Shown here in pieces: positions 1-46,351 of a stretch of 46,713 nt of DNA (within the stretch, counting starts at the first letter, position 1; each line of letters opens with the position of its first letter). The stretch is from Desulfobacteraceae bacterium (lineage in GTDB: Bacteria; Desulfobacterota; DSM-4660; Desulfatiglandales; Desulfatiglandaceae): NCBI GenBank assembly GCA_041685955.1, contig JAWLET010000002.1, positions 1 to 46,713 on the forward strand, in the 5' to 3' direction. A model generated the notes under the pieces. That model was given only the letters and a program-made list of their open reading frames with translations. It did not search any database and was not told the origin of the DNA. The position numbers and the translations under genes are program-made.

Positions 1-2541
1 CTGATGAAGCAATCCACGCTGGTCAAAATCCTGATCCTCCTCACCCTGCTCCCCAATGTGGCCATCCCCATCATCAATTACCAGTTCTCCTACGCGGTGA
101 ACGATTCGTTTGCCACCCAGGGGGGCATGCTCAATTTCTTCGGGTATTTCCGGGGGGCCATGAATATCGTCAGTCTCTTTATTCTGCTCTTTGTGGGCAG
201 GGTCTACGGCAAGTGGGGCCTGCCCGTGGTCCTCATGTTTCATCCTGTCAATTACATGATCGCCTTTGCCGCCTTTCTTTTGCGGTTTGACATCTTTTCG
301 GCCATGTATGCAAGGATTTCCACCAATGTGATCCGGACCACCATGAACAACCCGGCCCGGGCCGTACTCATGGGGCTGTTCCCGATGGAGTACCGGGCCG
401 TGATCCGGCCCTTTTTACGGGGCACGGTAGTGCGTATCGGCATCCTGGCCGGTTCCGGAATCATTATCGCGTCGGAAGGGTGGTTTCACCCCAGATATCT
501 CTCCATTGCCGCCATGATGTTTGTGGGGGCGTGGATTTTGACCAACCTTTGGCTCAAGAAGAGCTACTCCAACATCCTCCTGGATCTGATTACCCGGAAT
601 ATCCTTGATCTCAAGACCCTGGAAGAAAAGGACCTGGGGAGCGTGTTTGCAGACAAGACCATCCAGTCCAGACTGGTCCAGGAGTTTCTCCATGCCAGGG
701 GGAGGGATGCGGTCTGGTATGCGGAATTACTCCAGCCCCAGAGGATCCCTGATTTTGACCGATATATGCTCCAGGTGATTGAACAAAATGATGATCCCAC
801 CCGCATTGAACTCCTTTCCATGCTCTCACCAGAGGCGTCCCAGGACGCGGTCCCGGTGTTAAAGCGGCTGGTGGACCCTAAGAAGCGGGGGATGACCATC
901 GCCGCTGTAAAAGCGGCCAACCGGTTGTCTCCGGAACTGTCCAAGACGTTTGCCAAAGAGATCTTTGAAACCCAGAAAGACCCTGAGGTACAGGCCTATG
1001 CGGTCACCGGACTGTACCGGCTGGACCCTGAAAAATACCGGAAAGTCATCGATGCCTGGCTGGATTCCGAGGATCCGGCCCAACGACGGGCCGGTGTCAT
1101 TGCCGCGGGCGAGAGTGAAGATCCCATATATACCGCCCGGCTGAAGACGCTCCTGGCCCGGGAGAAAGACAACACCGTTGTGCCCCATATTCTGACCGCC
1201 CTTCGTGCGGTTGACGCTGAGGACACCAACGACCTGGCGGCGCCCTATCTTACGCATTCTACAGAGGCCATTCGCTTTGCAGCGCTGGATGCCTTTGAAA
1301 TAGTGGACGATGGCACCCTGAGGACGGTCATTCATATGATGGATGACGTCTCAGTGCAGATCCGTGGGCTGGCCAAAGAGAAGATCCAGACCGCAGATTA
1401 TGAAAACGCCGGCGTCCTGGTGGAATCGTTGAATATCCCGCGGCGTCAGGTGCGGGAGGGAATCTTTGACCTGCTGGACACTCTGGGGGTCAAGGATCTG
1501 GACATGGTCAAATTTGCCCGGTCCCAGGTGGAGCGTTGTTACAGTTATGTAGCCCAGATCGAGGCGTTGAAGGGATTCCCGGAGACCCCGGAGCGAGACC
1601 TCCTCATAGACCACCTGGAAAACAAAGAACAGACAGTACTGGAAACCGTGCTTCGGGTACTGGCCACAGGGGACCGTTCAGGCCGGATGCGGGCCATCTG
1701 GCGAGGGGTGTTTTCTGCAGATCAGAGGCGCCGCTCAAACGGTCTGGAAGCCCTGGATGATCTGCTGGATGCCTCTTTGTCCAAGGTCATGCTCCCTTTG
1801 CTGGAAAACCTTTCGCCCCCTGAGACCCTGAAGCTGGGACAAAAGAATTTCAAACTGCCCGATTTTAAAAAAGTGGACATCCGTGGATTTCTTTTAAAAC
1901 AGGATGATTGGGTTACAACCGTTCTGGCGCTCTATTTTTTGTCCAAACACGGTATTGACGGCGTAGACGAAGCAGACATACGAAAACTAACTGAGGCGGA
2001 TACGCCTTATGTTCAACAAATGGCCCGGATTGTCATGGATAAACAACACATCGAATCCGTTAGTGCGGAGGAAAAAATGGAATCAGACATCGCCATCCCT
2101 GACAAAATCCTGCGATTGAAAGGGATCAATATATTTGAAGGGCTTGCGGTGAGCGAATTGGGTGCCGTGGCCACTGTCACCGAGGTCGTGGATTACCCGG
2201 CCGGAGAAACCGTGATTAAACAGGGGGAGGCCGGGGAAACCATGTATCTGGTGATTGAGGGAGAGGTCTCCGTCATCAAGGAAAAGGGAGAGGCAGGGGA
2301 AAATGACATCGAACTGGCCAGGATCGGGGCCGGAGATTATTTCGGGGAGATGGCCCTGTTTGAGGACGCCGTTCGCTCCGCCACCATCCGCACGGCTGAA
2401 AAGTCCCGTTTTCTGGTCCTGCACAAACAGGAGTTTACGGAAATCGTACGGGAATATCCGCAAATCGCCCTTCGCATCTGCAAGGCCCTAAGCGGACGGA
2501 TAAGACAACTGCATGAAAAGGTCGAACAGGCTGATACATGA
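1..2541 (+). CDS. Multidomain membrane protein, 5'-truncated at window edge: polytopic MFS/ADP-ATP-translocase-like membrane region + HEAT/ARM-like helical repeats + C-terminal cyclic-nucleotide-binding (CAP/Crp-type) domain
   Basis: Frame 1 is open from base 1 to the TGA at 2539-2541, and the track ORF is 845 aa from the ATG at 4. The first ~190 aa are hydrophobic helices. The middle carries repeated helical units (DPEVQAYAVTGL, SEDPAQRRAGVIAAG, STEAIRFAALDAF, DVSVQIRGLA). The C-terminus has the cNMP-binding signature GDYFGEMALF...RSATIRT. Confidence 0.8.
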   Translation: MMKQSTLVKILILLTLLPNVAIPIINYQFSYAVNDSFATQGGMLNFFGYFRGAMNIVSLFILLFVGRVYGKWGLPVVLMFHPVNYMIAFAAFLLRFDIFSAMYARISTNVIRTTMNNPARAVLMGLFPMEYRAVIRPFLRGTVVRIGILAGSGIIIASEGWFHPRYLSIAAMMFVGAWILTNLWLKKSYSNILLDLITRNILDLKTLEEKDLGSVFADKTIQSRLVQEFLHARGRDAVWYAELLQPQRIPDFDRYMLQVIEQNDDPTRIELLSMLSPEASQDAVPVLKRLVDPKKRGMTIAAVKAANRLSPELSKTFAKEIFETQKDPEVQAYAVTGLYRLDPEKYRKVIDAWLDSEDPAQRRAGVIAAGESEDPIYTARLKTLLAREKDNTVVPHILTALRAVDAEDTNDLAAPYLTHSTEAIRFAALDAFEIVDDGTLRTVIHMMDDVSVQIRGLAKEKIQTADYENAGVLVESLNIPRRQVREGIFDLLDTLGVKDLDMVKFARSQVERCYSYVAQIEALKGFPETPERDLLIDHLENKEQTVLETVLRVLATGDRSGRMRAIWRGVFSADQRRRSNGLEALDDLLDASLSKVMLPLLENLSPPETLKLGQKNFKLPDFKKVDIRGFLLKQDDWVTTVLALYFLSKHGIDGVDEADIRKLTEADTPYVQQMARIVMDKQHIESVSAEEKMESDIAIPDKILRLKGINIFEGLAVSELGAVATVTEVVDYPAGETVIKQGEAGETMYLVIEGEVSVIKEKGEAGENDIELARIGAGDYFGEMALFEDAVRSATIRTAEKSRFLVLHKQEFTEIVREYPQIALRICKALSGRIRQLHEKVEQADT

Positions 2542-2722
2542 GGGTTGCCGCCCCCCTTCCCGGAAATCCAAAACGGCCGCTTTTTATAAGGCCTGTTCCG
2601 GACGTCTGCCGCCCGGCGGCATCTAAATCCGTTCATGTCTTTTCCCCTGGGCCCGAAGTGAATCACTCCCCGGGCCGAATTGCCGTTTAGGCGGATCCTC
2701 AAGGAGGTGTGAATCGCTATCT

Positions 2723-3880
2723 ATGCGAAACCTTGATCTGTATGTGGACGGTGTTGATCGCTGTAATGACACCCGACAATTCACAATTAACATCCGGTTG
2801 TCCAGGACCTACGATGAAGCCTTGAGGTTGTGGTATGCCGTACCGTTTGATCAATGGAAATACTGCACCTTGGAGCCCATGGACGCCTTCGTACTGGCGG
2901 CCCTTTTAAAGGCCATGGAGGATCGGGCCGCATTGCGGGTCCACGGCCCGGTGTCCGCCTCCCTTCTCAACAATCTGGAGGAATTCCAGCTTATTTTCAG
3001 CCTGTGGTTTCCAGATAAATATGGGTGCATTGACATTCAAGCCGACAGTGAGGTGGAAACCCAACCGGTCAACGACCAGGTCATCCTCAGTTTTTCCGGC
3101 GGCGTGGACGGGGCTTTTTGTGCGCTGAACCACATCCTGAGGCGGGGACCCATAAAACGAAAATTGTTTGACGTCAATGCCGCCCTTTATATTGAAGGCT
3201 TTGACATCAACATAGACTATGATGCCCAATGCAAAGCAGTGGTCCAGCGGAACCGGGCGCTTCTTAAAGACCATGGGGACTTGATATTTTTGAATGTCAG
3301 GACCAACCTCAAATATCTGCTTTCCATTAAACGATTCTGGGCGTCCCATGCCTGTGTGATTGCCTCCACTGCGGCGTTGTTCCGCCGCATATCGGGGGGG
3401 TGTCTGGTGGGAAGCAGTCACTCCTATCTGCACCTGAACCCCTGGGGGAGCCATCCCCTTACGGATAGGCTGCTGTCCAGCAAAGGGTTTCGCATTCACC
3501 ACGATATGGTGTTCACCCGAATGGAGAAGCTGAAGGCCCTCTCTGAGTGGCCCGAGGCGCTGGACAACCTCAAGGTCTGCTGGGAAGGACAGTATAAGTT
3601 CGACGCCTCCCCGGACAAGAATTGTTGTGTGTGCGACAAATGTATCCGGACCATGCTGGCCTTCAAGGCCCTGGGTCAGAAGATGCCGTCCAGCTTTCCC
3701 CAACCCTTGACCCCTGAGAAGGTCCAAAGACTGGGGAACAAACGCTTTGACTGGTCCAGATTGGTATTCCTCATCGAAGTGCTGGAGACTGCCGAGCGGA
3801 CCGGAAAGGCCCGGGATCCGCTTTTCATGGCCCTCAGATCGGTTATCGGAGATCGGCGGCCCGAAGATTTTCCAAAATAA
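2723..3880 (+). CDS. Hypothetical QueC/ExsB-like PP-loop (adenine-nucleotide alpha-hydrolase) protein with an unrecognised ~115-aa N-terminal domain
   Basis: 385-aa ORF. It has a strand-loop-helix QVILSFSGGVDGAFCALNH, with the SGGxD(S/G) PP-loop at aa 125-130 (nt 3095-3112). The C-terminal Cys cluster C286 ... C301-C302-x-C304-x2-C307 (VCWEG...NCCVCDKCIRT) recalls the QueC zinc site. An AAGGAGG lies ~14 nt upstream of the ATG. Confidence 0.65.
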   Translation: MRNLDLYVDGVDRCNDTRQFTINIRLSRTYDEALRLWYAVPFDQWKYCTLEPMDAFVLAALLKAMEDRAALRVHGPVSASLLNNLEEFQLIFSLWFPDKYGCIDIQADSEVETQPVNDQVILSFSGGVDGAFCALNHILRRGPIKRKLFDVNAALYIEGFDINIDYDAQCKAVVQRNRALLKDHGDLIFLNVRTNLKYLLSIKRFWASHACVIASTAALFRRISGGCLVGSSHSYLHLNPWGSHPLTDRLLSSKGFRIHHDMVFTRMEKLKALSEWPEALDNLKVCWEGQYKFDASPDKNCCVCDKCIRTMLAFKALGQKMPSSFPQPLTPEKVQRLGNKRFDWSRLVFLIEVLETAERTGKARDPLFMALRSVIGDRRPEDFPK

Positions 3881-3908
3881 TGATGCCCGATATGATGGAG
3901 TACAGATA

Positions 3909-5444
3909 ATGAAAGTTACCTATATATACCCACCGCTTTTTAAACCTTTTTATCCCATGGCCACCCGGATATTGACGGAGAATCTGCTCAGAAACCCGCA
4001 TCTGGAAGTGGAATTCAGTGCCATCCCGGTAAGCACCTATCAATCAGAAGTAGACCAAAAACTCTATGACACGATCATGTCCAAGGCCCGATCACAGTTC
4101 TCTCCCAATGTCGTCGCTTTCATGGAACAGAAATACATGGTGTATAACGTGTTTTATGTATTCATGGCCCACGGATATTTTGACGAATACATCCTGGAGC
4201 AGTATGACACGGATATCCAAATTGTCTCGGTCTTGAATTTCTGTGATTTACTGATTGTCAAGCATCTGCTCCAGATGGGGAAAAAGGTGGTCCTGGGAGG
4301 AGCGCTCATCAACATCAAACTGTCCCATTCCTTTGTGCGCCGGTTTCTGCAGGCCATGGGGGTTCCCGCTGCCAAATTGCAGGAGAATCTGATCATCGTG
4401 TCCGGGAATATCGATCTCACCACAGATCTTTATGCCATTATCAGCGCATGGAAGGATACCGAGATTCGATCCAACGATTACGGGACCGTGTATGACTGTG
4501 AGCGGGATTTTTTGAGGCAATACTATCGCGCCACTCCTTCCACACCCGTGCACTTTGGATTCAACAACCGGTGCTGGTACGGGAAATGTAAGTTCTGTAC
4601 CTACCGGGAACTGCCGGCCATGGATTTTCTGACCCACATTGAAAAAGACCGGATCGTCCGCTATGTCCACGATATGATGCAAACCTGTGGATCACGCCAG
4701 CTTCGGTTCATCGATTCTTATTACCGGTGCAACTCAGCGCACGTAGAAGATATTCTGAACCAAATAGCCGATTACAACATCACCATATATACCGGCATTA
4801 TGCTCCTCAAAAACAAGGCATATATTGAGTTCATCAACCGGCATGTCAACTGCCTGCTTATTGGTCTGGAATCCACATCCGACTTTTCACTGAAATATGT
4901 GGATAAGGGCTACACCTATGCGGATATCGAGATGGCCGTTGACCAGATCATCCGTTACCTGAACCGGGATGTTTTTTTGGAGATTTCCATTATTGTGGAT
5001 TTACCGGGCCAAGATGCGGCGGACATCAGAAAGAACTATGAACAGATCGCAGCCCTCAGGGAGCGCCTGGCAAATGAGGGGTTCAAAGTGGCCGTGCACA
5101 TGAATATCCTGAGTGTGTTTCCGAACCTGGAACTTTTGTATCAGAAAGAGGGTCTGCTGACGTATTCCTTGGATCCCAAAGACCTGGATACCGCCACCGG
5201 CAAAAACCACCTGATCCACATTTTGAGAAAATCAGGGATGGACAACCCCCTCCAGCTTCCTTCTCGCTGTGTGATTAAAGATGAGGATAACCGCTATGGG
5301 CTCACCTACGGGTATATCAGCTCGGATACCCCTGTGATCCGCTATGATGTGAATGGGAACCGACTCCCTTCTGATCTGGAGTTGATGGATGAAGGGATCA
5401 TGAAATCCATCTTGAAGCGGGAGCGTCGGAGGCTGGAACGGTGA
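3909..5444 (+). CDS. B12-binding-domain-type radical-SAM-like protein with a non-canonical Cys triad (CX4CX2C)
   Basis: The ATG at 3909 is preceded by GGAG at 8-nt spacing, giving 511 aa. The longer track ORF from 3747 overlaps the upstream gene and is unlikely. The N-terminal ~200 aa look Rossmann/B12-domain-like (KKVVLGGALI). The Cys triad NRCWYGKCKFCTY sits at nt 4572-4598, followed by a TIM-like core (LLIGLESTS). The gene is visibly more AT-rich than its flanks. Confidence 0.7.
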   Translation: MKVTYIYPPLFKPFYPMATRILTENLLRNPHLEVEFSAIPVSTYQSEVDQKLYDTIMSKARSQFSPNVVAFMEQKYMVYNVFYVFMAHGYFDEYILEQYDTDIQIVSVLNFCDLLIVKHLLQMGKKVVLGGALINIKLSHSFVRRFLQAMGVPAAKLQENLIIVSGNIDLTTDLYAIISAWKDTEIRSNDYGTVYDCERDFLRQYYRATPSTPVHFGFNNRCWYGKCKFCTYRELPAMDFLTHIEKDRIVRYVHDMMQTCGSRQLRFIDSYYRCNSAHVEDILNQIADYNITIYTGIMLLKNKAYIEFINRHVNCLLIGLESTSDFSLKYVDKGYTYADIEMAVDQIIRYLNRDVFLEISIIVDLPGQDAADIRKNYEQIAALRERLANEGFKVAVHMNILSVFPNLELLYQKEGLLTYSLDPKDLDTATGKNHLIHILRKSGMDNPLQLPSRCVIKDEDNRYGLTYGYISSDTPVIRYDVNGNRLPSDLELMDEGIMKSILKRERRRLER

Positions 5445-5448
5445 TCTC

Positions 5449-6741
5449 TCACTCCCTTTCTTCAATGGGAATATAATCTCTTTCATTCAGGCCGGTATAG
5501 ATCTGGCGGGGGCGATGGAGTTTCCATTTGGGGTCGTCCACGCTTTCCTTCCACTGGCTGATCCACCCGGGAAGACGGCCTATGGCAAACATGACCGTAA
5601 ACATATTCAAAGGGATACCGATGGCCCTGAGGACAATGCCGGCATAGAAATCCACATTGGGATAGAGATTGTGGTCAATGAAATAGGGGTCTTTGGTGGC
5701 CACTTCTTCCAGTTTTTTGGCAATGGGCAGAAGCGGATCTTCCCGGTTCAACTTTTTCAGTACCTTGTTGCAGACCTTTTCCATAATACGGGCCCGGGGA
5801 TCGTAGGTCTTGTATACCCGGTGGCCGAACCCCATGAGCCGAAAGGGGTCGTTTTTGTCCTTTGCACGGGCAATAAACGGGGCCGGATCCCCTCCGCTGT
5901 GGTCGATTTCCTGCAGCATCTCTATCACCGCCTGGTTGGCCCCCCCGTGGAGCGGCCCCCACAGGGCGCATATTCCTGCTGAAATGGCCGCATACAGATT
6001 GACCCGAGCGCTCCCCACCAGGCGGACCGCTGCGGTGGAACAGTTCTGCTCGTGATCCGCGTGCAAAATCCAGAATACGTTCAGGGCGTCTACAATATCC
6101 GGGTCCACGGTATAGGGCCGGACCGGGGAATCAAACATCATGTGTAGAAAATTCGCACAATAGGAGAGGTCCCAGCGGGGATATTCCAGCTTGTGACCCA
6201 AAGAGATCCGGTGAGACATGGCAGCGAGAGTCCGGACCTTGGACAGGAGCCGGGCAAACGTGATGTTGATTTCCTCTTCTTCGCTTCTTTCGGGAATGGT
6301 GGGATAAAATGCCTTGAGGGCATTCATCATGGATGAAAGGATCCCCATGGGATGGGCCCTTCTGGGGTAGTTCTCAAAATAGGCCCGCATATCCTCATGG
6401 ACCATGGAGTGGTCATTGAGCATGGTGGAAAAATGATCCAGCTCCGCCCGGCTGGGCAATTTGCCATTGATCAAGAGGTAGGCGGTTTCAATAAAACTGG
6501 CTTTTTCTGCCAGTTGCTCCACTGGAATGCCCCTGTACCTCAAAATCCCCTTTTCACCGTTCATGAAGGTAATATCGCTCTCACAACTCCCTGTATTGGC
6601 ATAGCCGGGATCCAGGGTGATAAGTCCTGTTTTCTTTCGAAGCTCCGTGATATCGATGGCCTCCTCTCCTTCAGAGCCTATCACCACAGGCAATTCGTAC
6701 GTTTCTCCATTGACCATTAACTTGGCTGTGCTTGTCATCAA
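5449..6741 (-). CDS. gltA: Citrate synthase
   Basis: 430-aa ORF with typical citrate synthase blocks (LHADHEQNCSTAAVRLVGS, GFGHRVYKTYDPRA, DFYAGIV). Confidence 0.95.
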   Translation of the reverse strand: MMTSTAKLMVNGETYELPVVIGSEGEEAIDITELRKKTGLITLDPGYANTGSCESDITFMNGEKGILRYRGIPVEQLAEKASFIETAYLLINGKLPSRAELDHFSTMLNDHSMVHEDMRAYFENYPRRAHPMGILSSMMNALKAFYPTIPERSEEEEINITFARLLSKVRTLAAMSHRISLGHKLEYPRWDLSYCANFLHMMFDSPVRPYTVDPDIVDALNVFWILHADHEQNCSTAAVRLVGSARVNLYAAISAGICALWGPLHGGANQAVIEMLQEIDHSGGDPAPFIARAKDKNDPFRLMGFGHRVYKTYDPRARIMEKVCNKVLKKLNREDPLLPIAKKLEEVATKDPYFIDHNLYPNVDFYAGIVLRAIGIPLNMFTVMFAIGRLPGWISQWKESVDDPKWKLHRPRQIYTGLNERDYIPIEERE

Positions 6742-14841: not shown

Positions 14842-17358
14842 ATGACTCTCTTAAATGAAGCCTGGTTTTCCAACATAAGACGTCCCAGTCGATACTTGGG
14901 GGGCGAAATCAATGCCATTAGAAAGGATCCGGCCCGAACAGAGGTCCTGGTGGCCCTCCTGTTCCCGGATATCTATGAGGTGGGAATGTCTCATCTGGGG
15001 CTGAAAATTCTTTATCACCTCCTCAACAGCCAGGGCTGGCTGGCCGCTGAACGGGCCTTTTCCCCTGGGGTCGATTTGGAGGCTGAGATGCAGGACCGGC
15101 GGATTCCCCTGAGCACGCTGGAGTCGGGTCGACCCCTGTCCGCATTTGATGTGCTGGGGTTCAGCCTTCAACATGAACTGTGTTATACCAACGTTCTCAA
15201 TATGTTAGACCTTGCAGGCGTTCCCTTTTACAGCAGGGAAAGGCAGAATGATTTTCCCCTGGTCATTGCTGGAGGGCCTGCATGTTTTAATCCGGAACCG
15301 GTCGCGGATTTTTTTGATCTCATGGTCATAGGGGACGGGGAGGCCCCTTTTCTGGAAATTTGCAAACGGATCCGCAAAGCCAAGAGAGCGCATCGGGCCG
15401 ATAAAAGGCGACTGCTCCTGGAACTGCGCCACATCAGCGGGGTGTATGTGCCGTCTTTTTTTGGTGTACACTATCATGGGGACGGCCGCATTCAACACAT
15501 TGAACCCGTCCTTTCCGATTACCGCAAGGTGAGGCGATCCATTCTTCCGGATATCGACCTTTACCCCTATCCCGAGCGTCAGATTGTCCCCTTTACTGAA
15601 CTGGTGCACGACCGTATCTCTGTGGAGATATCCAGGGGGTGTACCCGGGGATGCCGGTTCTGCCAGGCCGGGATGATCTATCGGCCGGTACGGGAGCGAA
15701 GCCTCCAATCCATCATGGAGAAGGCCGAGCAGGCATTAAAGCTTACCGGATATGATGAGCTGTCCCTCCTCTCTCTGAGTTCCGGAGATTACAGTGCCAT
15801 TGTCCCCCTTTTACAGGGTCTTATGGATCGACAGGCCCCCATGAATATCGGCGTGAGCCTCCCTTCTCTGCGGGTGGATACCTTGGCCCCTTCGGTCATA
15901 CAGCAAATTAATCGGGTAAGAAAAACCGGGTTTACCTTGGCTCCGGAGGCGGGAAACGATCGCCTCAGACGTGTCATTAACAAGGGATTCACCCAAGAAG
16001 ACATCCTTCATACCGCACAGGTGGTGTACGCAGCCGGGTGGAAACTGATCAAACTTTACTTTATGATCGGACTTCCCTGGGAAGCAGAAAAAGACCTGCG
16101 GGATATTGTCCACCTGGTAAAACGGATTTCCGCGCTTTCAGGGAAAAAGGGCAAAAGACCCAATCTCAACGTGGGCATCTCCACCTTTGTGCCCAAATCC
16201 CATACCCCGTTTATGTGGCAGGCCCAGGTTTCGCTGGAGGAGAGCCGTAGGCGGATACGGCTCGTTCAGGACGGTCTGAAGGGATCACGGGTGAAGATCA
16301 AATGGAACCAGCCTGAGTTGAGCTGGCTGGAGGGGGTATTCGCCAGGGGAGACAGAAGGCTGAGCCGAACCCTTAAAAGAGCATGGAGCCGAGGGGCGAG
16401 ATTCGATTCATGGGGGGAGCATTTCAATATGAGGATCTGGGAGGAGGCCTTTTTAAGCACAGGCCTAAACCCTGATTTCTATTTGACCAGGGAAAGGGCT
16501 TTTACGGAAATCCTGCCCTGGGACCATATCGATTCAGGGGTGAAAAAGACATTTTTCATTGAGGAATGGGAGCGGGCTAAAACCGAACAAGTCTCCCCGG
16601 ACTGTAGACACAAGTGCCTTGATTGCGGGGTATGTGATCATAAGCGTGTAGCTCCGGTCCTTCTTTCGGACAGCAATCCCTTGCCTGCTCCATCTCCAAA
16701 AAATACGAATCAGGACCCGGATGTTTCACGGTACCGTTTGACCTTCACAAAACTGAACCGCATGAGGCACCTTTCACACCTGGAACTTTTACGCGTATTT
16801 ACCCGGGCCTTCAGGCGGGCCGGGTTGAACCTGGCCCATTCCAAAGGATATCATCCCATGCCCAAAATTTCGTTTTTTTCGTCCCTCTCGGTGGGGACCC
16901 AAAGTCTTCATGAGGCCATGGAGATTGAACTGTTATCAAAACCAGCACCCTCAAGATTGAAAGAACGGATCGGTCGTGAACTCCCCAAAGGAATCGACTT
17001 GGTCCATGTGGAACCGGTTCTCCCGGGCCGGAAAAAGGTCCGGTTGAAAGAAAGTGAATACACCATCACCCTCGGACAGCCCGGATTTAATGAGAAACCA
17101 TTGCGGGAATTTTTACAGTCAGAGCGGTTTCCTATTGTCAAAATGAGTAAAAAAGGGGAACATGAGATCGACGCGCGGTCCCTGGTGAAATCCATGGCCA
17201 TTGATTCACCCACCACCCTGCATCTGCGCATTCTTGAAATCCGGCCCGGGGGAGGCCCGGGACTGAAACCAACGGAAATTGTACGCCATATCTTTGGTCT
17301 TCAGGAGGATGAAATGCTCAATATGACCATATTAAAAACCGAGCAAGTCCTGGAGTAA
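14842..17358 (+). CDS. B12-domain radical SAM protein (TIGR03960-like) fused to a DUF2344/TIGR03936-like C-terminal domain
   Basis: 838 aa. Canonical CX3CX2C motif CTRGCRFCQAG at nt 15640-15663. The C-terminal ~210 aa (from ~16725) read RYRLTFTKLNRMRHLSHLELLRVFTRAFRRAGLNLAHSKGYHPMPKISF, which is typical of the radical-SAM-linked DUF2344 family. Confidence 0.85.
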   Translation: MTLLNEAWFSNIRRPSRYLGGEINAIRKDPARTEVLVALLFPDIYEVGMSHLGLKILYHLLNSQGWLAAERAFSPGVDLEAEMQDRRIPLSTLESGRPLSAFDVLGFSLQHELCYTNVLNMLDLAGVPFYSRERQNDFPLVIAGGPACFNPEPVADFFDLMVIGDGEAPFLEICKRIRKAKRAHRADKRRLLLELRHISGVYVPSFFGVHYHGDGRIQHIEPVLSDYRKVRRSILPDIDLYPYPERQIVPFTELVHDRISVEISRGCTRGCRFCQAGMIYRPVRERSLQSIMEKAEQALKLTGYDELSLLSLSSGDYSAIVPLLQGLMDRQAPMNIGVSLPSLRVDTLAPSVIQQINRVRKTGFTLAPEAGNDRLRRVINKGFTQEDILHTAQVVYAAGWKLIKLYFMIGLPWEAEKDLRDIVHLVKRISALSGKKGKRPNLNVGISTFVPKSHTPFMWQAQVSLEESRRRIRLVQDGLKGSRVKIKWNQPELSWLEGVFARGDRRLSRTLKRAWSRGARFDSWGEHFNMRIWEEAFLSTGLNPDFYLTRERAFTEILPWDHIDSGVKKTFFIEEWERAKTEQVSPDCRHKCLDCGVCDHKRVAPVLLSDSNPLPAPSPKNTNQDPDVSRYRLTFTKLNRMRHLSHLELLRVFTRAFRRAGLNLAHSKGYHPMPKISFFSSLSVGTQSLHEAMEIELLSKPAPSRLKERIGRELPKGIDLVHVEPVLPGRKKVRLKESEYTITLGQPGFNEKPLREFLQSERFPIVKMSKKGEHEIDARSLVKSMAIDSPTTLHLRILEIRPGGGPGLKPTEIVRHIFGLQEDEMLNMTILKTEQVLE

Positions 17359-17380
17359 AGAGGACCGAGGAGATTGTCCC

Positions 17381-18934
17381 ATGTCCAGCGAACTGATCAT
17401 TAATTCCAGGCCATATGAAACTCGGGTGGCCCTTGTGGAGAACGGCGTGGTGGTGGAACTTCATGTGGAGCGGGACACGGGGCAGGAATTGACAGGGAAT
17501 ATATACCGGGGACGGGTGGTGAGGGTGCTGCCGGGGATGCAGGCCGCGTTTGTGGACATCGGGCTTGAGCGGACCGCCTTCCTTTATGTATCAGATGTGT
17601 ACAAGGATTTCTCTGACATGGAACAGATGATGCTCGAAACGAGCGGGGTCAGCCAGGAATACAGAATTGTCGACGCCGAAAGTCCAAAGGGGGATCGATT
17701 CGAAAGTGATCCTTTTTTGATCGAAGACCTTCTCCATGAGGGACAGAGCATTTTGGTCCAGGTGGCCAAGGAACCCATCGGCAATAAGGGGGCCCGGTTA
17801 ACGTCTCACATATCGCTCCCCGGAAGACATCTGGTGTTGATGCCTACCGTCAATCACATCGGTGTGTCTCGACGCATAGAGGATCGCGATGAGCGGGAGC
17901 GGCTCAAATCCATCATTCGGGAGATTCGGCCCCTGCCCATCGGCTTTATTGTAAGGACAGTAGGGGAAGACGGTTCCAAGGAGAAGTTTCAGGCTGAAAT
18001 GGACTTTCTTATCAAGCTCTGGGAAAATATTGAGACCAAGATGGGAAAAGGCACAAATCCCGCTTTGTTATACAAGGATCTGTCCATCTCCCTGCGGGCG
18101 GTCAGAGATCTTTTCACCCGGGAGGTGGATCGCCTGATTATCGATTCCGAAGACGAATACGAAAGCATCATGGACTTTATCAAGACCTTCGCCCCCAGGT
18201 TGAAGTACTCAGTGGAGTTGTATGAGGGTCGCGATCCCATCTTCGATGCATTCGGGATCGAAATAGAAATCTCCCGTGCCCTGGGAAAAAAGATATGGCT
18301 GAAATCCGGGGGGTATATCGTCATTGAAGATACTGAAGCGCTCACTTCCATCGATGTGAACACGGGAAGCTACGTGGGAAAACGAAATCTGGAAGAAACC
18401 ATCGTAAAGACCAACCTGGAAGCGGTCAGGGAAATAGCCTATCAACTCCGATTCAGGAATATCGGAGGCCTTATTGTTATCGATTTCATCGACATGGAAA
18501 AAATGTCCAACCGGGAACGGGTGGCCAACGCACTCAGGGCGGCCATGAGCAAGGATAAAGCGAAGTCCAATATCCTCGAAATGTCGGATATGGGGCTCAT
18601 CGAGATGACCCGAAAGCGGACCCGGGCCAGTTTGAATCGGTTGCTGACGGAGCCCTGTTTTTACTGTGAAGGGCGGAGCAATCTGAAGTCCCCCAAAACC
18701 ATCTGCTATGAAATATTCAGGGATCTTGAAAGGGAATTTACACCTCCCGCCCTCGGTTCCGCTGAAGGCGGGAAAGGGGGGCACGTCCGTATCCTGGTCC
18801 ACCCTGAAATCGACAATGTCCTTCGGGAAGAGGAACAAAGATGGGTGATTGATCTGGAAAAACGGTTGGGGAAACGGATTATGATCATTGGAAAAAAAGA
18901 CTTTCACCTGGAGCAATATGAACTCAGCCCTTAA
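17381..18934 (+). CDS. rng: Ribonuclease G (Rne/Rng family)
   Basis: 517 aa. It has an N-terminal S1-like domain (GNIYRGRVVRVLPGMQAAFVDIG) and a catalytic core (TEALTSIDVNTG, GGLIVIDFIDM). GAGGAG lies 8 nt upstream of the start. Confidence 0.9.
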   Translation: MSSELIINSRPYETRVALVENGVVVELHVERDTGQELTGNIYRGRVVRVLPGMQAAFVDIGLERTAFLYVSDVYKDFSDMEQMMLETSGVSQEYRIVDAESPKGDRFESDPFLIEDLLHEGQSILVQVAKEPIGNKGARLTSHISLPGRHLVLMPTVNHIGVSRRIEDRDERERLKSIIREIRPLPIGFIVRTVGEDGSKEKFQAEMDFLIKLWENIETKMGKGTNPALLYKDLSISLRAVRDLFTREVDRLIIDSEDEYESIMDFIKTFAPRLKYSVELYEGRDPIFDAFGIEIEISRALGKKIWLKSGGYIVIEDTEALTSIDVNTGSYVGKRNLEETIVKTNLEAVREIAYQLRFRNIGGLIVIDFIDMEKMSNRERVANALRAAMSKDKAKSNILEMSDMGLIEMTRKRTRASLNRLLTEPCFYCEGRSNLKSPKTICYEIFRDLEREFTPPALGSAEGGKGGHVRILVHPEIDNVLREEEQRWVIDLEKRLGKRIMIIGKKDFHLEQYELSP

Positions 18935-42127: not shown

Positions 42128-45100
42128 TCAACCTTCCTCATGTTCATCAATTTTCAACTTCCCCAGGTATACGGAGCCCTCAAGGCCGTCCATGCTGATC
42201 CAGTCCCCGGAATGAAGTGTGGTCTGGTCAAAGGCGCAGCTCCTCTCCTTTTCCGAACAGACCAGATTCGGGCACCCCACCACACAGGTCTTCTCCAGCC
42301 GGTGGGCCACAATAGCGGCATGTGAGGTGGACCCGCCTCGTGCGGTTAACAGCCCGTCTGCTTCGTAGATCTCCGTGATGTCGTCCGGGACCGTATCGCT
42401 CCTGACCATGATGAGCGCGGTTTCGGGTTCTTTGGTTCGCCACTGTTTGATTTCGTCCAGGCTGAAGACCACCCGTCCGGTCATGGCCCCGCCACTGACC
42501 CCGATGCCGTGGCCGATGAGTTGAGCTGCCCCTTCGGGAGGAGTCCCAAAGGAGTAGACCTTTCTGCGCTCGCGGATGGCCATCTCCCGGGTCTGAAGGA
42601 AATACAGTTGGCTTGGGCTGGATCCCTCAAAGGTGAACTCTATCTCCTGGGGGCTCCAGTTTTCATCATAGATAAGCCCCTTGGCCCGTTCTCTTAGGGT
42701 ATCATAGATTTCCGGAAACAGGGTCTCCAAGGTCGTAGACGTCTCGCGGTTTTCAATCTCGGCCTGTGTTTCGGAAATGGGAAGCGTCTTGACCAGACCC
42801 GAGACCACATCTTCACCCTGATTCCCCTGTGTGAAATCTCCCCACAGCATGAGCGTGTCTCCTGACCATCTGGGATTGTGGGTAAAAAAGACTCCGGCCC
42901 CTGAACTGGCTGAAAAATTACCAAATACCATGGCCTGGACCGTCACCGCCGTCCCCCAGTCATCGGAGATCCCCATGATCCGGCGGTAGGTCCGGGCCTT
43001 GGGGACATTCCATGAATCAAAGACCTTGCCGATGGCCACGTAGAGCTGTTCCAGGGGGTCCTCGACGATCTCGATGCCGTGGTCCCGGATCAGGCGCTTG
43101 TAGGTCATGGCCACTTCCCGCATATTTTCCCCTGAAAAATTGCGTTTGTACAATAATCCCAGCCGCTGTTTGAATTCATCAATGATGGCATCGAAATCAT
43201 CCCGGATGAGTCCGAAGGCCATGCCGTAGGACTGGAGAAACCTGCGGTAGGTATCCCAGCCGAACCAGTGGTTTCCGGTCTGCTGAATTAACCCGTGAAC
43301 GACGGCCTCGTTGATGCCCACATCCAGAAAGGTGTTCATCATGCCGGGCTGGGATACGGAAGAGCCGCTCCTCACCGAGAAGAGCAGGGGATTTTGGGGG
43401 TTGCCAAACGCTTTTCCCGAAACCCTGTTGATGTGTCCTACCTCAGCCGCTATTTGATCCTGAAAGTTCTTCTTGGCCGGGGGATAGTTGTCAATCACCT
43501 CACGGCACCTGAATACCTCGGTAGTGACGATGAACCCGGGAGGGACGGGAAACCCCAGGGCCTGCAGTTTTACCAGATTGAATCCCTTGCTTCCCAGATG
43601 GATGATGTCCAAAAGCCCTTTTCGGACCCGGTCCATTCGGGTGATGGCCTTTTGGGGGTCGTAACTGAGCAGCAGCTTGACGCGCTCGTCGGGAAGTTTA
43701 TGAGACTGATCAAAAAGGGTATGCAAAATGCGGCCCAGGAACAGGTCCAGTTGCTGCAGGCCCAGGGAGGAGGCAATACGATCCCGCAAAAAAACCTCTG
43801 TTACGCGGTTTGCTAAGCTATTGGAATCTTTTTGGTCTTCCGGGAAGCGGTACTTGGGCAGGAGATTTTCCTCAGGCAGGTGTTTGATAATCCTGAGTAG
43901 GTTGTCCTGGTGAGTGTTGTTGTAATAGTCGCTTACGATATTGCCCACCGCCTTGGAGAGGCCTCTGAAAATATCCAAGTACTGGGTATGGGAAAATCCC
44001 CTGATCTCCAAGGAATTGGCCAAAAGATCCAACTGTCGTCCCAACTCAATGGAGGAAATACCGTCCAGATCCAGGGCCCTTTCAAAGAGACGGAGGTGAT
44101 CCAGGATCTGGGAAAAGGTGGCCTTGGTAATGACCCTCAAATCGATCCCCTGGACCATCTCTTCAAACAGGGTGTTCAGGAGCGATTCCAGCCGGAAGGT
44201 CAGGCCCAGGGCCTCAAATTTCAACTCGTGGTAACTTCCGTACATGGAAGGGATATCCACGGTGAAATGTCGCTTTTGGTAGATGTCTTCTCTGATGTCA
44301 TAGGTCTCCTGGGACAGGATAACTCCCTTCAGGTCTTCAAGATAGCCCAGGATGCCCTGAAGCCGGTTTCTGGTGCCTTGCCGGGCCAGTGCCTCTTTGA
44401 GCCGGTGGAAATCGGGAAGATCGCTTGAGCGCAACTGGGAGAGGTAATCGTCCATCTGAGTAATGCCCGTCTGATATTTCTGGTACAAAAGCTTATACAG
44501 ATTGATCATGAGGGTTACCCGCTCGGAGTCTACGCCCGATGCACCGGGGACCTGGTTGATCAGGGCCTTTACAGATTCCTCTTCCATCCACACCAAATCC
44601 GGTATGTCAGAGATGTTCCCTTCCGTGACCATATGGTTCATGATTTTATGGACCCCGTCGATAAACGGTCCTCGGGTCTCCACTTCTTTCAAGACCGGTG
44701 CGGGCAGATAGGGGGCCAGCCCGGATTTATCCCCTGTTTTCCAGAAAGTAAGGGTGGCTTCCATGAGGGAAACGATTTGGTTGCTGCTCTCCACATGACT
44801 CTGCTTGCGGATAAAGTGGGAGAGGGGATCCTTTCTGAGGCATACCTCGTCGATCTGGGTGGAGATTTCTCTTAATTCCCCTTCGGCCCCGATGTCGCTG
44901 TAAAACACAGGGAGAATCCGGGCCAGTTGTTTGATCAGGTTGTAAACCGGTGCGATATCGTTGTTTAACAGGCGGGTAATGTCCCGGGGGAACAGGTCCG
45001 TGTCCCGGATTAACACCCCGCTCAGGGAGAGATTGATGATCAAGGAAGAGATCAGCTTTTTGGACCACTTGGGTTTGAGGCCGATCAGTTCAAGCCAGGT

Positions 45101-46351
45101 CCGGATATTCTGGAGATGGGCCGCATTGGCCCGGATCTGCCAGTCCTCTCCCACCCCTTTTATCTCAGGGGCCTGAAATCCCAGGGACACCATGCCGTCA
45201 ATGAAAAAATCGACCAGTTCGCTTTTATCGGTTTTGTACAGCGCTTTTCCCATATTCAGGACCGCGTGCAGGGCGGTCTCCGGAAACTTTTCCATGTTGT
45301 TTCTGAGGGTGCCGAAGATCTTTTCCAGAAACCGCTGAACCTCCTGAACCGGTTCATGTTCAATCACTCCGGTAAGACTTCGGTTGATGTCCCTCAGGTT
45401 CTGTTCATGAATGGAGGAAAGACCGTCGATGTTCATGATGTTCAACAGGGCCACCAGCTTAAGCTGTGGCCCTATGCTTCGGTCCGTGACCGAGGCCAAG
45501 AGCGCTTGCGGAATTTTACCGTAATCATGGACAATCCGTCCGAATCCGGGAAGGACCGCCAATTGTTCGAGTCGTTTTCGGGCGTCCTTTTCAGTTTTTT
45601 TCAAGATGGTGTCCAGACGCTCCTGATACGCCTTCAACTGCCGGTGGGAGACGGGTTTGAGGACTTCATTGATCCGGGCCTCACCGGTTTCCTCTTTGGA
45701 AAGATCTTGGAACCATCTAAGGGGGTCCTCCTGCTTCAACCAGTAGGCATAGGTGTACAGCAGCGTGTCTTCAAGCAGGGCATTGAGGGCCGTAACATCC
45801 AGGTGGGTGGCGGAGGCTTTGAGGATTTCCAAACAGTCCCCGGCAATGGCGCTTATCTGATAGAAGCTGGTCACAAACAGGTGAAATATTTCTTCGGGGT
45901 ATTGGCGGATTCTGTCAAACCCGTAATCCAGCAAAGGGGAGAAGCTTGGAAGTGAATCTTCCGCGTTTCGAATGATGTGCTGTAGAAAAAACAGGAGGTT
46001 GTCGGCGGCATCCCTTTTGACCGCTTCGGTCCGGGCCGATTCCAGGGCCTGGAAGAAGATATCCACATACAACCGGGCCGCTTCCGGGCCTTTGGAATGG
46101 GTTTTTACCACATGAAAGTAGTTGAGGGCATAGGACCGGGCCTCCTTGACGATATATTCCCAGTTTTTGTAAGGGTGGCAGATCTCTTCCAGGAGACCCT
46201 GCAGGCCTTGTTTGACCCCCGGATACCGCTCCATGACCTCAAGGAGGATTTTGTACCGTTCATCTACGGTGACATCGACCCGAGTACATTCCAGATTAAC
46301 CTGAAGGGCCTTGGATTTCATGCCTCCATCGCTCCTGATCCATCCATTCAT
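42128..46351 (-). CDS. Giant dikinase-like protein: ~900-aa unrecognised helical N-terminal region + PPDK/PEP-synthase-type ATP-grasp nucleotide-binding domain + phosphohistidine swivel domain; no PEP/pyruvate-binding domain
   Basis: 1407 aa. From aa ~918 (nt <=43600) it shows HLGSKGFNLVKLQALGFPVPPGFIVTTEVF, FSVRSGSSVSQPGMMNTFLDVGIN, WGTAVTVQAMVFGN, QGEDVVSGL and EIEFTFE...LYFLQTR. The swivel motif is LLTARGGSTSHAAIVAHRLEKTCVVGC, with the His codon at 42320-42322. The ORF ends ~60 aa later. An alternative start is the ATG at 46321. Confidence 0.9.
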   Translation of the reverse strand: MNGWIRSDGGMKSKALQVNLECTRVDVTVDERYKILLEVMERYPGVKQGLQGLLEEICHPYKNWEYIVKEARSYALNYFHVVKTHSKGPEAARLYVDIFFQALESARTEAVKRDAADNLLFFLQHIIRNAEDSLPSFSPLLDYGFDRIRQYPEEIFHLFVTSFYQISAIAGDCLEILKASATHLDVTALNALLEDTLLYTYAYWLKQEDPLRWFQDLSKEETGEARINEVLKPVSHRQLKAYQERLDTILKKTEKDARKRLEQLAVLPGFGRIVHDYGKIPQALLASVTDRSIGPQLKLVALLNIMNIDGLSSIHEQNLRDINRSLTGVIEHEPVQEVQRFLEKIFGTLRNNMEKFPETALHAVLNMGKALYKTDKSELVDFFIDGMVSLGFQAPEIKGVGEDWQIRANAAHLQNIRTWLELIGLKPKWSKKLISSLIINLSLSGVLIRDTDLFPRDITRLLNNDIAPVYNLIKQLARILPVFYSDIGAEGELREISTQIDEVCLRKDPLSHFIRKQSHVESSNQIVSLMEATLTFWKTGDKSGLAPYLPAPVLKEVETRGPFIDGVHKIMNHMVTEGNISDIPDLVWMEEESVKALINQVPGASGVDSERVTLMINLYKLLYQKYQTGITQMDDYLSQLRSSDLPDFHRLKEALARQGTRNRLQGILGYLEDLKGVILSQETYDIREDIYQKRHFTVDIPSMYGSYHELKFEALGLTFRLESLLNTLFEEMVQGIDLRVITKATFSQILDHLRLFERALDLDGISSIELGRQLDLLANSLEIRGFSHTQYLDIFRGLSKAVGNIVSDYYNNTHQDNLLRIIKHLPEENLLPKYRFPEDQKDSNSLANRVTEVFLRDRIASSLGLQQLDLFLGRILHTLFDQSHKLPDERVKLLLSYDPQKAITRMDRVRKGLLDIIHLGSKGFNLVKLQALGFPVPPGFIVTTEVFRCREVIDNYPPAKKNFQDQIAAEVGHINRVSGKAFGNPQNPLLFSVRSGSSVSQPGMMNTFLDVGINEAVVHGLIQQTGNHWFGWDTYRRFLQSYGMAFGLIRDDFDAIIDEFKQRLGLLYKRNFSGENMREVAMTYKRLIRDHGIEIVEDPLEQLYVAIGKVFDSWNVPKARTYRRIMGISDDWGTAVTVQAMVFGNFSASSGAGVFFTHNPRWSGDTLMLWGDFTQGNQGEDVVSGLVKTLPISETQAEIENRETSTTLETLFPEIYDTLRERAKGLIYDENWSPQEIEFTFEGSSPSQLYFLQTREMAIRERRKVYSFGTPPEGAAQLIGHGIGVSGGAMTGRVVFSLDEIKQWRTKEPETALIMVRSDTVPDDITEIYEADGLLTARGGSTSHAAIVAHRLEKTCVVGCPNLVCSEKERSCAFDQTTLHSGDWISMDGLEGSVYLGKLKIDEHEEG

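Follow-up and report, generated by a model that had tools for sequence, protein, structure and literature searches.

Organization of the locus

The stretch of DNA analysed in this work, referred to as the window, comprises the first 46,713 nucleotides of contig JAWLET010000002.1 of a Desulfobacteraceae bacterium (assembly GCA_041685955.1). Close to its start lie two consecutive genes, gene 1 and gene 2, which an earlier note made from the sequence alone had described as an orphan cassette of a QueC-like PP-loop protein and a radical S-adenosylmethionine (SAM) enzyme. They are preceded by the 3' part of a membrane protein gene (Table 1). The stop codon of gene 1 occupies 3878–3880 and the ATG of gene 2 follows 28 nt beyond it, at 3909, behind a GGAG of its own, as had been stated. 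The open reading frame (ORF) of gene 2 could formally begin at a TTG at 3747, but the starts of its homologs (MKxTYIYPP) favour 3909. At the other end, gene 2 runs head-on into an ORF that ends at 5449, with 4 nt between the two; this had been called gltA, and its product was confirmed as citrate synthase (NF004126, 609.9 bits against a cut-off of 505).

Table 1. Features of the gene pair and of the region upstream of it (positions in the window)
Feature	Position	Strand	Remarks
NTT(TLC)-HEAT-cNBD membrane protein gene, 3' part (845 codons)	1..2541	+	5' end (about 227 codons) outside the window
Intergenic leader with gene 1 ribosome-binding site	2542..2722	+	AAGGAGG at 2701-2707, 15 nt before ATG
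Gene 1	2723..3880	+	ORF and translation, 385 aa; PP-loop-type ATP pyrophosphatase-like protein (predicted)
Gene 1 PP-loop codons SGGVDG, aa 125-130	3095..3112	+	Conserved in family alignment
Gene 1 Cys4 motif C286-x14-C301-x2-C304-x2-C307	3578..3643	+	QueC-like; presumed zinc site
Gene 2 ribosome-binding site GGAG	3897..3900	+	8-nt spacer to ATG, read from sequence
Gene 2	3909..5444	+	511-aa predicted radical-SAM enzyme: Rossmann-like N-domain, barrel, C-terminal extension
Gene 2 cluster motif CWYGKCKFC (C222-x4-C227-x2-C230), aa 222-230	4572..4598	+	

The upstream gene encodes a protein in which a nucleotide-transporter (NTT) membrane domain of the TLC type, HEAT repeats and a C-terminal domain binding cyclic nucleoside monophosphates (cNMP; the cNMP-binding domain is abbreviated cNBD) are joined in one polypeptide. 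The part within the window matched the Pfam families cNMP_binding (E=4e-21) and HEAT_2 (E=4e-10). Full-length homologs are about 1070 aa long, the window copy beginning near residue 228 of their alignment, and the TLC domain was found in the homologs from loci L001 and L072. The NTT-HEAT-cNBD fusion architecture, deltaproteobacterial members included, was described by Major et al. (2017; PMC5381601), who gave neither a function nor an analysis of gene neighbourhoods for these proteins.

The gene 1 family

A word-index search returned 195 clusters of homologs for gene 1, and 141 were found for gene 2; the pair is thus not an orphan. About 89 of the gene 1 clusters, at 58–83 % identity, came from metagenome-assembled genomes labelled Desulfobacteria, Desulfatiglandaceae or Deltaproteobacteria; the remainder, at 33–42 % identity, came from cyanobacteria, Acidobacteria and other phyla. 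An exhaustive search with the gene 1 profile identified 9117 representative clusters (50 % identity) at E≤1e-3, of which 3781 were at E≤1e-30, and nearly all matches were to proteins of about 390 aa aligned over their full length. Cultured carriers of the family include Psychrobacter, Streptomyces, Azospirillum, Pragia fontium, Arthrobacter and Aliterella. In spite of this size, neither Pfam nor NCBIfam gave a match to the gene 1 protein at E≤1, and a PDB sequence search with the single protein was negative. With the family profile, the PDB search yielded only a spurious PPR-repeat match and sub-threshold matches to the PP-loop of GMP synthase, with which the SGGVDG stretch was aligned non-significantly (E 0.25).

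The protein consists of a family-specific N-domain (aa 1 to about 115), a PP-loop domain and a QueC-like Cys4 motif. Residue conservation was counted over 264 aligned family members, 86 from the clade of the window protein and 178 others. The PP-loop, which with the preceding Phe reads F-SGGVDG (aa 124–130, nt 3092–3112), was found as it had been read from the sequence, with Gly instead of Ser at its end. S125, G126, G127 and D129 were invariant or nearly so, whereas at position 130 the window's clade has Gly (85 of 86 members) and the others mostly Ser (125 of 178); the ‘odd’ Gly130 is therefore a trait of this clade within a canonical SGGxDS family. Strictly invariant in all 264 members were C286, N300, C301, C304 and C307. 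The C-terminal cysteines of gene 1 (C286, C301, C302, C304 and C307) lie within VCWEG...NCCVCDKC.

The N-terminal ~115 aa had been singled out as novel, and this was borne out in so far as the region was covered by the negative Pfam and NCBIfam searches. It is, however, conserved throughout the family, in particular at L36, W37, D54, F56, M65, H74, G75, S78, N84, E87, Q89, W95, P97 and Y100. Judged from the alignment, the N-domain is one of the features that define the family and no local add-on.

The AlphaFold2 (AF2) model of gene 1, built from 51 sequences, had a predicted local distance difference test score (pLDDT) of 92.5 and a predicted template modelling score (pTM) of 0.91. Two hallmarks of the PP-loop superfamily could be recognized: the SGGxD[ST] loop after the first β-strand, its last residue being G in the clade of gene 1, and a Rossmann-like α/β fold, for which the structural matches had E-values of 1e-3 to 1e-2. 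Whole-chain Foldseek comparison with the PDB gave the highest probabilities for TrmU/MnmA (0.87), the QueC-like Cap9 (0.66) and NcsA (0.57), and the list also contained NAD and NMN synthetases, TilS and YcfA. None of these PDB matches had E<0.01 (best 1.4e-2), probably because of the extra N-domain. Against a library of viral models, the best matches included phage QueC (probability 1.0, target-normalised TM score (TMt) 0.60, root-mean-square deviation 4.9 over 222 columns) and the N-terminal domain of TilS. On the basis of the model, gene 1 is predicted to encode an enzyme of the PP-loop type that carries a QueC-like Cys4 motif and has an extra domain at its N-terminus.

The same fold matches bear on the possibility that gene 1 is a sulfur-inserting PP-loop enzyme of the MnmA, NcsA, LarE or YcfA type, its cysteines holding an Fe–S cluster or a persulfide, and that the radical-SAM partner finishes a thio-metabolite. 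TrmU/MnmA and NcsA are among the top-probability matches, and YcfA, which we take to be a thiolase, is also listed; furthermore, the neighbourhood of a second gene 1 clade (see below) contains a protein with an FGE-sulfatase/EgtB-like domain and a glutathione-synthetase-like ligase. These FGE-like and GshB-like genes are, however, absent from loci of the window type. The four invariant cysteines also form the C...CxxCxxC pattern of the QueC zinc site, unlike the three cysteines that hold the [4Fe-4S] cluster of non-sacrificial LarE, and the Cys pattern of NcsA and TtcA likewise differs from it. A thiolation function was accordingly considered improbable.

Gene 2: a radical-SAM enzyme with a CX4CX2C cluster motif

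Gene 2 had been read as a protein with a B12-domain-like N-terminus and a radical-SAM core, and profile searches had been proposed as a check on both proteins. The hidden Markov model searches gave no Pfam PP-loop or QueC match for gene 1 and, for gene 2, a PF04055 (radical SAM) match below threshold (E=2e-5, 25.2 bits against a gathering score of 29.5). Most gene 2 homologs carry a precomputed PF04055 match, and NCBIfam gave weak matches to B12-radical-SAM families; the B12-binding family PF02310 did not match. The reading held at the level of the fold. The AF2 model of gene 2 had a pLDDT of 93.8, and all 42 Foldseek matches in the PDB at E≤1e-3 were radical-SAM enzymes, each with a probability of 1.0. 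MgmA was the best of these (E=3e-11 over 458 columns), followed by MiaB/RimO/MtaB, TsrM, OxsB, CysS and AprD4. Gene 2 is thus, as predicted from its model, a radical-SAM enzyme with a barrel and a Rossmann N-terminus that is B12-domain-like at the fold level.

The succession of a Rossmann N-domain and a barrel is the same as in the class B radical-SAM enzymes (MgmA, TsrM, OxsB, CysS, TokK) and in AprD4, MiaB and RimO, which resemble them but are independent of B12. Sequence identity to these enzymes is only 12–15 %, however, the gene 2 family lacks a recognizable conserved cobalamin-binding signature, and gene 2 possesses a unique C-terminal domain of ~110 aa that sets it apart from them.

The cluster motif CWYGKCKFC was present as reported, and its CX4CX2C spacing was found in 120 of the 120 gene 2 homologs listed, including those at 31–34 % identity, with the consensus C-[WF]-[YWH]-[GAN]-[KR]-C-[KRS]-F-C. 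It aligns with the CX3CX2C of another radical-SAM enzyme. The family as a whole is well conserved (mean column identity 59 %), with an invariant GLE triplet at aa 319–321. The spacing of four residues between the first two cysteines had been pointed out in the earlier note. It is no novelty: a CX4CX2C motif is already documented in OxsB (PMC9204698), and the literature also records it for a megacluster of RadicalSAM.org. The motif of gene 2 is therefore unusual but already known elsewhere.

Relation to QueC and to 7-deazapurine enzymes

The hallmarks of QueC (PF06508), according to a 2026 survey, are SGGxDS, C(x)8CxxCxxC, YxQxHxxE and VPxRN (PMC13329287). Gene 1 resembles QueC in its PP-loop Rossmann fold, in the SGGxD at the start of the catalytic domain and in the C-terminal C...CxxCxxC with its four cysteines, and phage QueC was one of its best fold matches in the viral-model library. 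The zinc-site likeness drawn in the earlier note thus stands for the four cysteines, which are invariant, and not for their spacing, gene 1 having C(x)14 where QueC has C(x)8 before the same CxxCxxC core. YxQxHxxE and VPxRN are absent from the gene 1 translation, in which only a loosely similar V-R-T-N was found (aa 192–195). Conversely, the conserved N-domain of ~115 aa, a C-terminal helical extension of ~70 aa and the Gly-ending loop of the clade have no counterpart in QueC. The window protein did not match PF06508 at E≤1; its relatives reached 14–17 bits (cut-off 22; E about 0.005–0.04), the match covering the Cys motif only (profile positions 162–207 of 210). Alignment of the gene 1 family profile with E. 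coli QueC by hhalign likewise covered the Cys motif alone, with a probability of 14 %. Gene 1 is therefore most accurately described as QueC-like, a PP-loop enzyme that does not belong to the QueC family itself.

A relationship to the uncharacterized family DUF6395 (PF19932) was also suggested. Several relatives of gene 1 at 33–42 % identity passed or approached the threshold of this family (gathering score 25 bits) over the Cys motif and C-terminal region, with scores of 26–28 bits for P0115, P0117 and P0294 and of 16–22 bits for others. The Pfam model spans the C-terminal part only, however, and did not match the window protein at E≤1. From these scores the gene 1 family probably overlaps DUF6395 or is its sister. 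DUF6395 was not mentioned in the literature searched.

Queuine lyase (6p78) was the sole significant sequence match of the gene 2 profile in the PDB (E=5.7e-6). Its cluster loop, CIWGKCSFC, has the same C-x-W-G-K-C-x-F-C as gene 2. It is, however, a single-domain protein of 251 aa, the match being limited to gene 2 residues ~209–346, where the cluster loop and the barrel's first half lie, and it was not among the top 50 fold matches of gene 2, which has additional N- and C-terminal domains.

The earlier note had pointed to 7-deazapurine biosynthesis and to DpdC-type DNA modification. In a module handling a 7-deazapurine or another nucleobase or nucleotide, the NTT protein would import a nucleotide or base, the QueC-like enzyme would amidate or dehydrate a substrate of the carboxy-deazapurine type and the radical-SAM enzyme, like queuine lyase or OxsB, would remodel it. 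The fold matches of gene 1 to phage QueC and Cap9, its QueC-type CxxCxxC, the queuine lyase match with its shared cluster motif and the nucleotide-transporter (TLC) domain of the upstream protein are all consistent with this, as is the structural match of gene 2 to OxsB, another CX4CX2C enzyme, which acts on deoxyadenosine phosphates. It is opposed by the lack of a PF06508 match, of the C(x)8 spacing and of the YxQxHxxE and VPxRN motifs in gene 1, by the limited reach of the queuine lyase match along gene 2, and by the wider gene 1 family being found in glycan clusters and fused to pyruvyl transferases (see below). No queuosine or 7-deazapurine gene (folE, queD, queE, queF, tgt, dpdA) was found in the 46.7-kb window or in L001, and no NTT-HEAT fusion protein has a known substrate (PMC5381601). 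A nucleobase substrate was consequently given a low probability.

QueC-like scaffolds are also reused in the Qat, cyclic-oligonucleotide-based anti-phage signalling system (CBASS) type IV (Cap9) and Dpd systems, which would be the precedent for a role of the pair in anti-phage defence or DNA modification of the DpdC, QatC or Cap9 type. PADLOC, however, gave no match for gene 1 or two of its relatives, and for gene 2 only a weak match to a candidate model (PDC-M51A, E=1.6e-6). There is no TGT/DpdA, nuclease or CD-NTase partner, and the chromosomal context is a stable housekeeping one with vertical conservation, so that this role appears highly improbable.

A conserved three-gene module

The earlier note had suggested a link between the pair and the upstream transporter-like gene, and had asked whether the pair co-occurs in other genomes. 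Both points were confirmed. By tblastn and HMM searches, the order membrane protein, gene 1, gene 2 was found in 12 loci (L001, L011, L012, L015, L093–L097, L108, L115 and L123), all from assemblies labelled Desulfobacterota (Desulfatiglandales, Desulfobacteraceae and similar). In L001, for example, which belongs to an 8.16-Mb genome, a 1073-aa TLC/HEAT/cNMP-binding protein is followed by the orthologs of gene 1 and gene 2, and the genes downstream are unlike those of the window. At least four distinct flanking contexts were represented (those of the window, L015, L108 and the L001 group). The gap between gene 1 and gene 2 varied from a 4-nt overlap to ~150 nt. Further instances of the pair were indicated by adjacent NCBI locus tags (LJE96_02180/02185 and VKA69_07460/07465) and by 16 gene 1/gene 2 cluster pairs whose longest contigs were equally long. 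These comparisons show that the three genes stay together in the same order in different surroundings, and that they form a conserved chromosomal module.

The membrane protein gene lay directly upstream of gene 1 homologs in L001, L011, L012, L015, L093–L100, L108, L115 and L123. As far as the searched literature shows, this link of NTT-HEAT-cNBD proteins to enzymes of the gene 1 family is seen here for the first time. In several loci, adenylate/guanylate cyclase genes adjoin gene 1 homologs or NTT-HEAT-cNBD genes, examples being a GAF-PAS-cyclase at L010:1409–3709 (- strand) and a cyclase at L072:15542–16969 (- strand). Such neighbours fit a cNMP signal that is produced locally and reaches the cNBD domain.

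A second gene 1 clade and other pairings of PP-loop and radical-SAM enzymes

Homologs of the membrane protein at 47–63 % identity occupy a different gene cluster. Scanning of metagenome contigs with the membrane-protein alignment gave 80 loci, of which 42 were analysed for neighbours, and 25 of these 42 contained a gene 1-family gene. In at least 16 loci the NTT-HEAT-cNBD gene adjoins a member of a second gene 1 clade, with 27–31 % identity to the window protein (~170 bits). One operon of this cluster encodes a 670-aa protein with a C-terminal GNAT domain, a RimK-family glutamate ligase and the gene 1-family member. The other often begins with an adenylate cyclase, after which come an FGE-sulfatase-like protein, the NTT-HEAT-cNBD protein, a GshB-like ligase and an Opp/Dpp-type ABC transporter. 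The whole forms a conserved neighbourhood of ~17 kb (L104, L106, L109, L116, L124, L139, L156 and others; e.g. L124:438–18097), which recalls N-acetylglutaminylglutamine amide (NAGGN)-type peptide synthesis with a PP-loop enzyme in the place of AsnO.

In a rough neighbour-joining tree the second clade and the window clade were not sisters, each being nested among different relatives from glycan clusters. If the tree holds, the membrane protein has become linked to gene 1-type enzymes more than once.

Pairing of a PP-loop enzyme with a CX4CX2C radical-SAM enzyme also recurs. In L124 the gene 1-like gene is followed by a gene for a 420-aa radical-SAM enzyme with GCYWRKCVFC (CX4CX2C); members of this radical-SAM cluster were also found in L138, L139, L166 and L170, where they do not adjoin the gene 1-like gene. 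In L009 a gene 2 relative at 31 % identity lies between an ATP-grasp enzyme and a PP-loop enzyme of the Asn-synthase type.

The L009 cluster as a whole (L009:438–11628) comprises a B12-radical-SAM enzyme, the ATP-grasp enzyme, the gene 2-like enzyme, the Asn-synthase-like enzyme and a small radical-SAM enzyme. The 339-aa neighbour was considered as a gene 1 homolog and rejected, since it is the ATP-grasp enzyme, and the second radical-SAM enzyme showed no significant similarity to gene 2 and was rejected as a paralog. The cluster is followed on the same strand by at least nine paralogous small ORFs (60–115 aa) with an N-terminal P-C-x2-C-L-V-x3-C motif, for which phage-like small genes and precursor peptides in multiple copies are two possible readings.

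Glycan contexts of the wider gene 1 family

Three sampled contexts of gene 1-family genes were in polysaccharide or O-antigen clusters. Among 125 immediate neighbours of family genes that do not belong to the Desulfobacterota clades (about 65 loci, L014–L089), polysaccharide pyruvyl transferase (PS_pyruv_trans) was by far the commonest (18 of the 125), followed by GT2 glycosyltransferases. The same association was seen within single polypeptides: three of the 10 long fusion proteins (P0246, P0258 and P0294) join the gene 1-family domain to PS_pyruv_trans. Two fusions, P0101 included, join it to a class I methyltransferase.

Polysaccharide pyruvyl transferases put a carboxylate, in the form of a pyruvate ketal, on sugars. 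A PP-loop enzyme beside a pyruvyl transferase would most simply activate that carboxylate, for example for amidation. No paper linking PP-loop or QueC-like enzymes to pyruvyl transferases was found in the searched literature, and the adjacency and fusion suggest a new step of glycan tailoring that can be tested.

Proposed function of the module

In QueC, NadE, Dph6 and AsnB the substrate is adenylated, after which ammonia or an amine displaces AMP and an amide is formed. The chemistry predicted for gene 1, with ammonia attacking an adenylated carbonyl, would likewise be that of the N-acetyl sugar amidotransferases WbpG, PseA and LpNASAT, of the Asn-synthase-type enzymes WbpS and AsnO and of the diphthine-ammonia ligase Dph6. 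With these amide-forming enzymes of glycan and protein modification the gene 1 family has in common its partners, namely polysaccharide clusters or ATP-grasp and GNAT proteins; the ATP-grasp and GNAT contexts in particular recall the NAGGN pathway, in which AsnO works with Ngg. Dph6, moreover, acts downstream of the radical-SAM-type enzyme Dph2. The WbpG/PseA/LpNASAT, WbpS/AsnO and Dph6 families nevertheless lack the Cys4 motif and the N-domain, and gene 1 had no Pfam or NCBIfam match to them.

On these grounds we tentatively favour the explanation that genes 1 and 2 encode two enzymes of a cNMP-linked module that modifies one carboxylate substrate, by amidation and then by radical chemistry. 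Gene 1 would adenylate the carboxylate (or a carbonyl oxygen) of the substrate, and displacement of AMP by ammonia or an amine would give the amide. Gene 2 would methylate this molecule or rearrange it by means of the 5'-deoxyadenosyl radical, cobalamin possibly taking part, and the membrane protein would transport or sense the substrate or product under cyclic-nucleotide control. An acidic metabolite of the sugar or peptide type would be a more likely substrate than a 7-deazapurine, since relatives of gene 1 adjoin pyruvyl transferases or ATP-grasp ligases of the RimK/GshB type.

Several observations weigh against this explanation. The proposed chemistry is extrapolated from the superfamilies, both enzyme families being uncharacterized. 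Neither PF06508 nor PF19932 matches the window gene 1 protein itself, and even its best Foldseek E-values, 1.4e-3 among the viral models and 1.4e-2 in the PDB, are marginal. A cobalamin-dependent step is a possibility only, as MiaB/RimO and AprD4, which do not use B12, fit gene 2 about as well as the cobalamin enzymes do. The neighbour-joining tree of the gene 1 family has no support values. Finally, the two genes are also found apart. Gene 2 orthologs (52–54 % identity) stand in L090 next to an ApbA-like reductase gene and in L092 between Hdr-like and cytochrome b genes, with neither gene 1 nor the membrane protein gene beside them. A subclade of close gene 1 homologs has no gene 2 downstream, namely in L010, where a convergent GAF-PAS-cyclase gene follows, and in L098/L099, where a GNAT-containing gene follows. 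Hence the two enzymes need not share one substrate, and the pairing of gene 1 with gene 2 is specific to a clade.

These separate occurrences could arise if the adjacency of genes 1 and 2 reflected a clade-specific operon packing of unrelated functions. Gene 2 would then be a standalone housekeeping radical-SAM enzyme modifying a cofactor, a lipid or a macromolecule, and, of the two enzymes, the NTT-HEAT-cNBD protein would cooperate with gene 1 alone. The high conservation of the gene 2 family points the same way, as does the link of the membrane protein to the gene 1 family, which reaches loci that have no gene 2. Packing alone accords poorly with the retention of the gene 1–gene 2 order in 12 loci and at least four flanking contexts. 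It also accords poorly with the very divergent CX4CX2C radical-SAM enzyme that follows a gene of the other gene 1 clade in L124 and with the gene 2 relative of L009 that is flanked by another PP-loop enzyme; repeated independent pairing of this kind argues for cooperation. Unrelated functions are the principal alternative to the explanation favoured here, though one we consider rather doubtful.

The amidation-and-radical module that we favour would overturn no current knowledge, but it offers a well-defined target for enzymology, as both enzymes belong to well-known superfamilies and to uncharacterized families. That the trio amounts to an unrecognized cyclic-nucleotide-gated pathway making or importing a new amidated, radical-modified metabolite is a bolder proposition and, in our estimate, an unlikely one. 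If true, it would provide the first functional handle on the NTT-HEAT(-cNBD) proteins, which are also found in cyanobacteria, Chlamydia and oomycetes, and on the DUF6395-related family (about 9000 clusters), which would amidate or otherwise derivatize pyruvate-ketal carboxylates in glycan clusters. It would likewise provide a handle on the CX4CX2C radical-SAM subgroup, to which queuine lyase may belong. In any case, the linkage gives a first hint, from gene context, of what the widespread NTT-HEAT-cNBD architecture may do, and with gene 2 the few known CX4CX2C radical-SAM enzymes are joined by a further family, which is conserved and has two main domains.

Base composition, leader region and surrounding genes

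Gene 2 is more AT-rich than its surroundings, as had been noticed, with a G+C content (GC) of 0.480 compared with 0.544 +/- 0.026 for 20 other ORFs of the window. Horizontal acquisition, which had been suggested, was not supported. The G+C content at third codon positions (GC3) is normal (0.621 compared with 0.655 +/- 0.035 for the other ORFs), the deficit being located at codon positions 1 and 2. A deficit of the same size (about 4–6 points) recurs in the gene 2 orthologs of L001, L096, L097, L115 and L123, with a smaller one in L015 and L108, and the orthologs track the GC of their hosts, with a GC3 of 0.75 in the GC-richer L108. The low GC of gene 2 is therefore a matter of amino acid composition.

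The leader upstream of gene 1 was considered as a possible riboswitch or other conserved element and rejected. There was no Rfam match at the gathering score in the window, and a search of positions 2450–3950 at E≤5 returned only a chance ‘drum’ match; when five orthologous leaders were aligned, the ribosome-binding site was the only conserved element. Candidate promoter and terminator sites were no more numerous than expected from shuffled sequence, and promoter or terminator signals of the pair's own were rejected. The spacer between the ribosome-binding site and the ATG of gene 1, 15 nt in the window, is only about 6–9 nt in the orthologous loci, and in the alignment ~8–11 nt are inserted between the two in the window leader (2701–2725).

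The rest of the window is occupied by housekeeping genes, which serve central metabolism (citrate synthase, methylmalonyl-CoA mutase, OAD-beta, transketolase, Dxs and IspA), translation and RNA (RNase G, AspRS and HisRS), and the envelope and secretion (PilC/PilS and DsbD). Two further genes of the window merit mention. A 1407-aa protein encoded at 42128–46351 (- strand) has Pfam matches (PPDK_N and PEP-utilizers) confined to the C-terminal ~450 residues; in the ~950 residues before these there is none at E≤1e-5. At 14842–18934 (+ strand), an 838-aa radical-SAM protein (Radical_SAM_N2, Radical_SAM and DUF2344) is encoded by a gene that directly precedes one of the RNase E/G family; this second uncharacterized radical-SAM enzyme of the window is unrelated to the gene pair.

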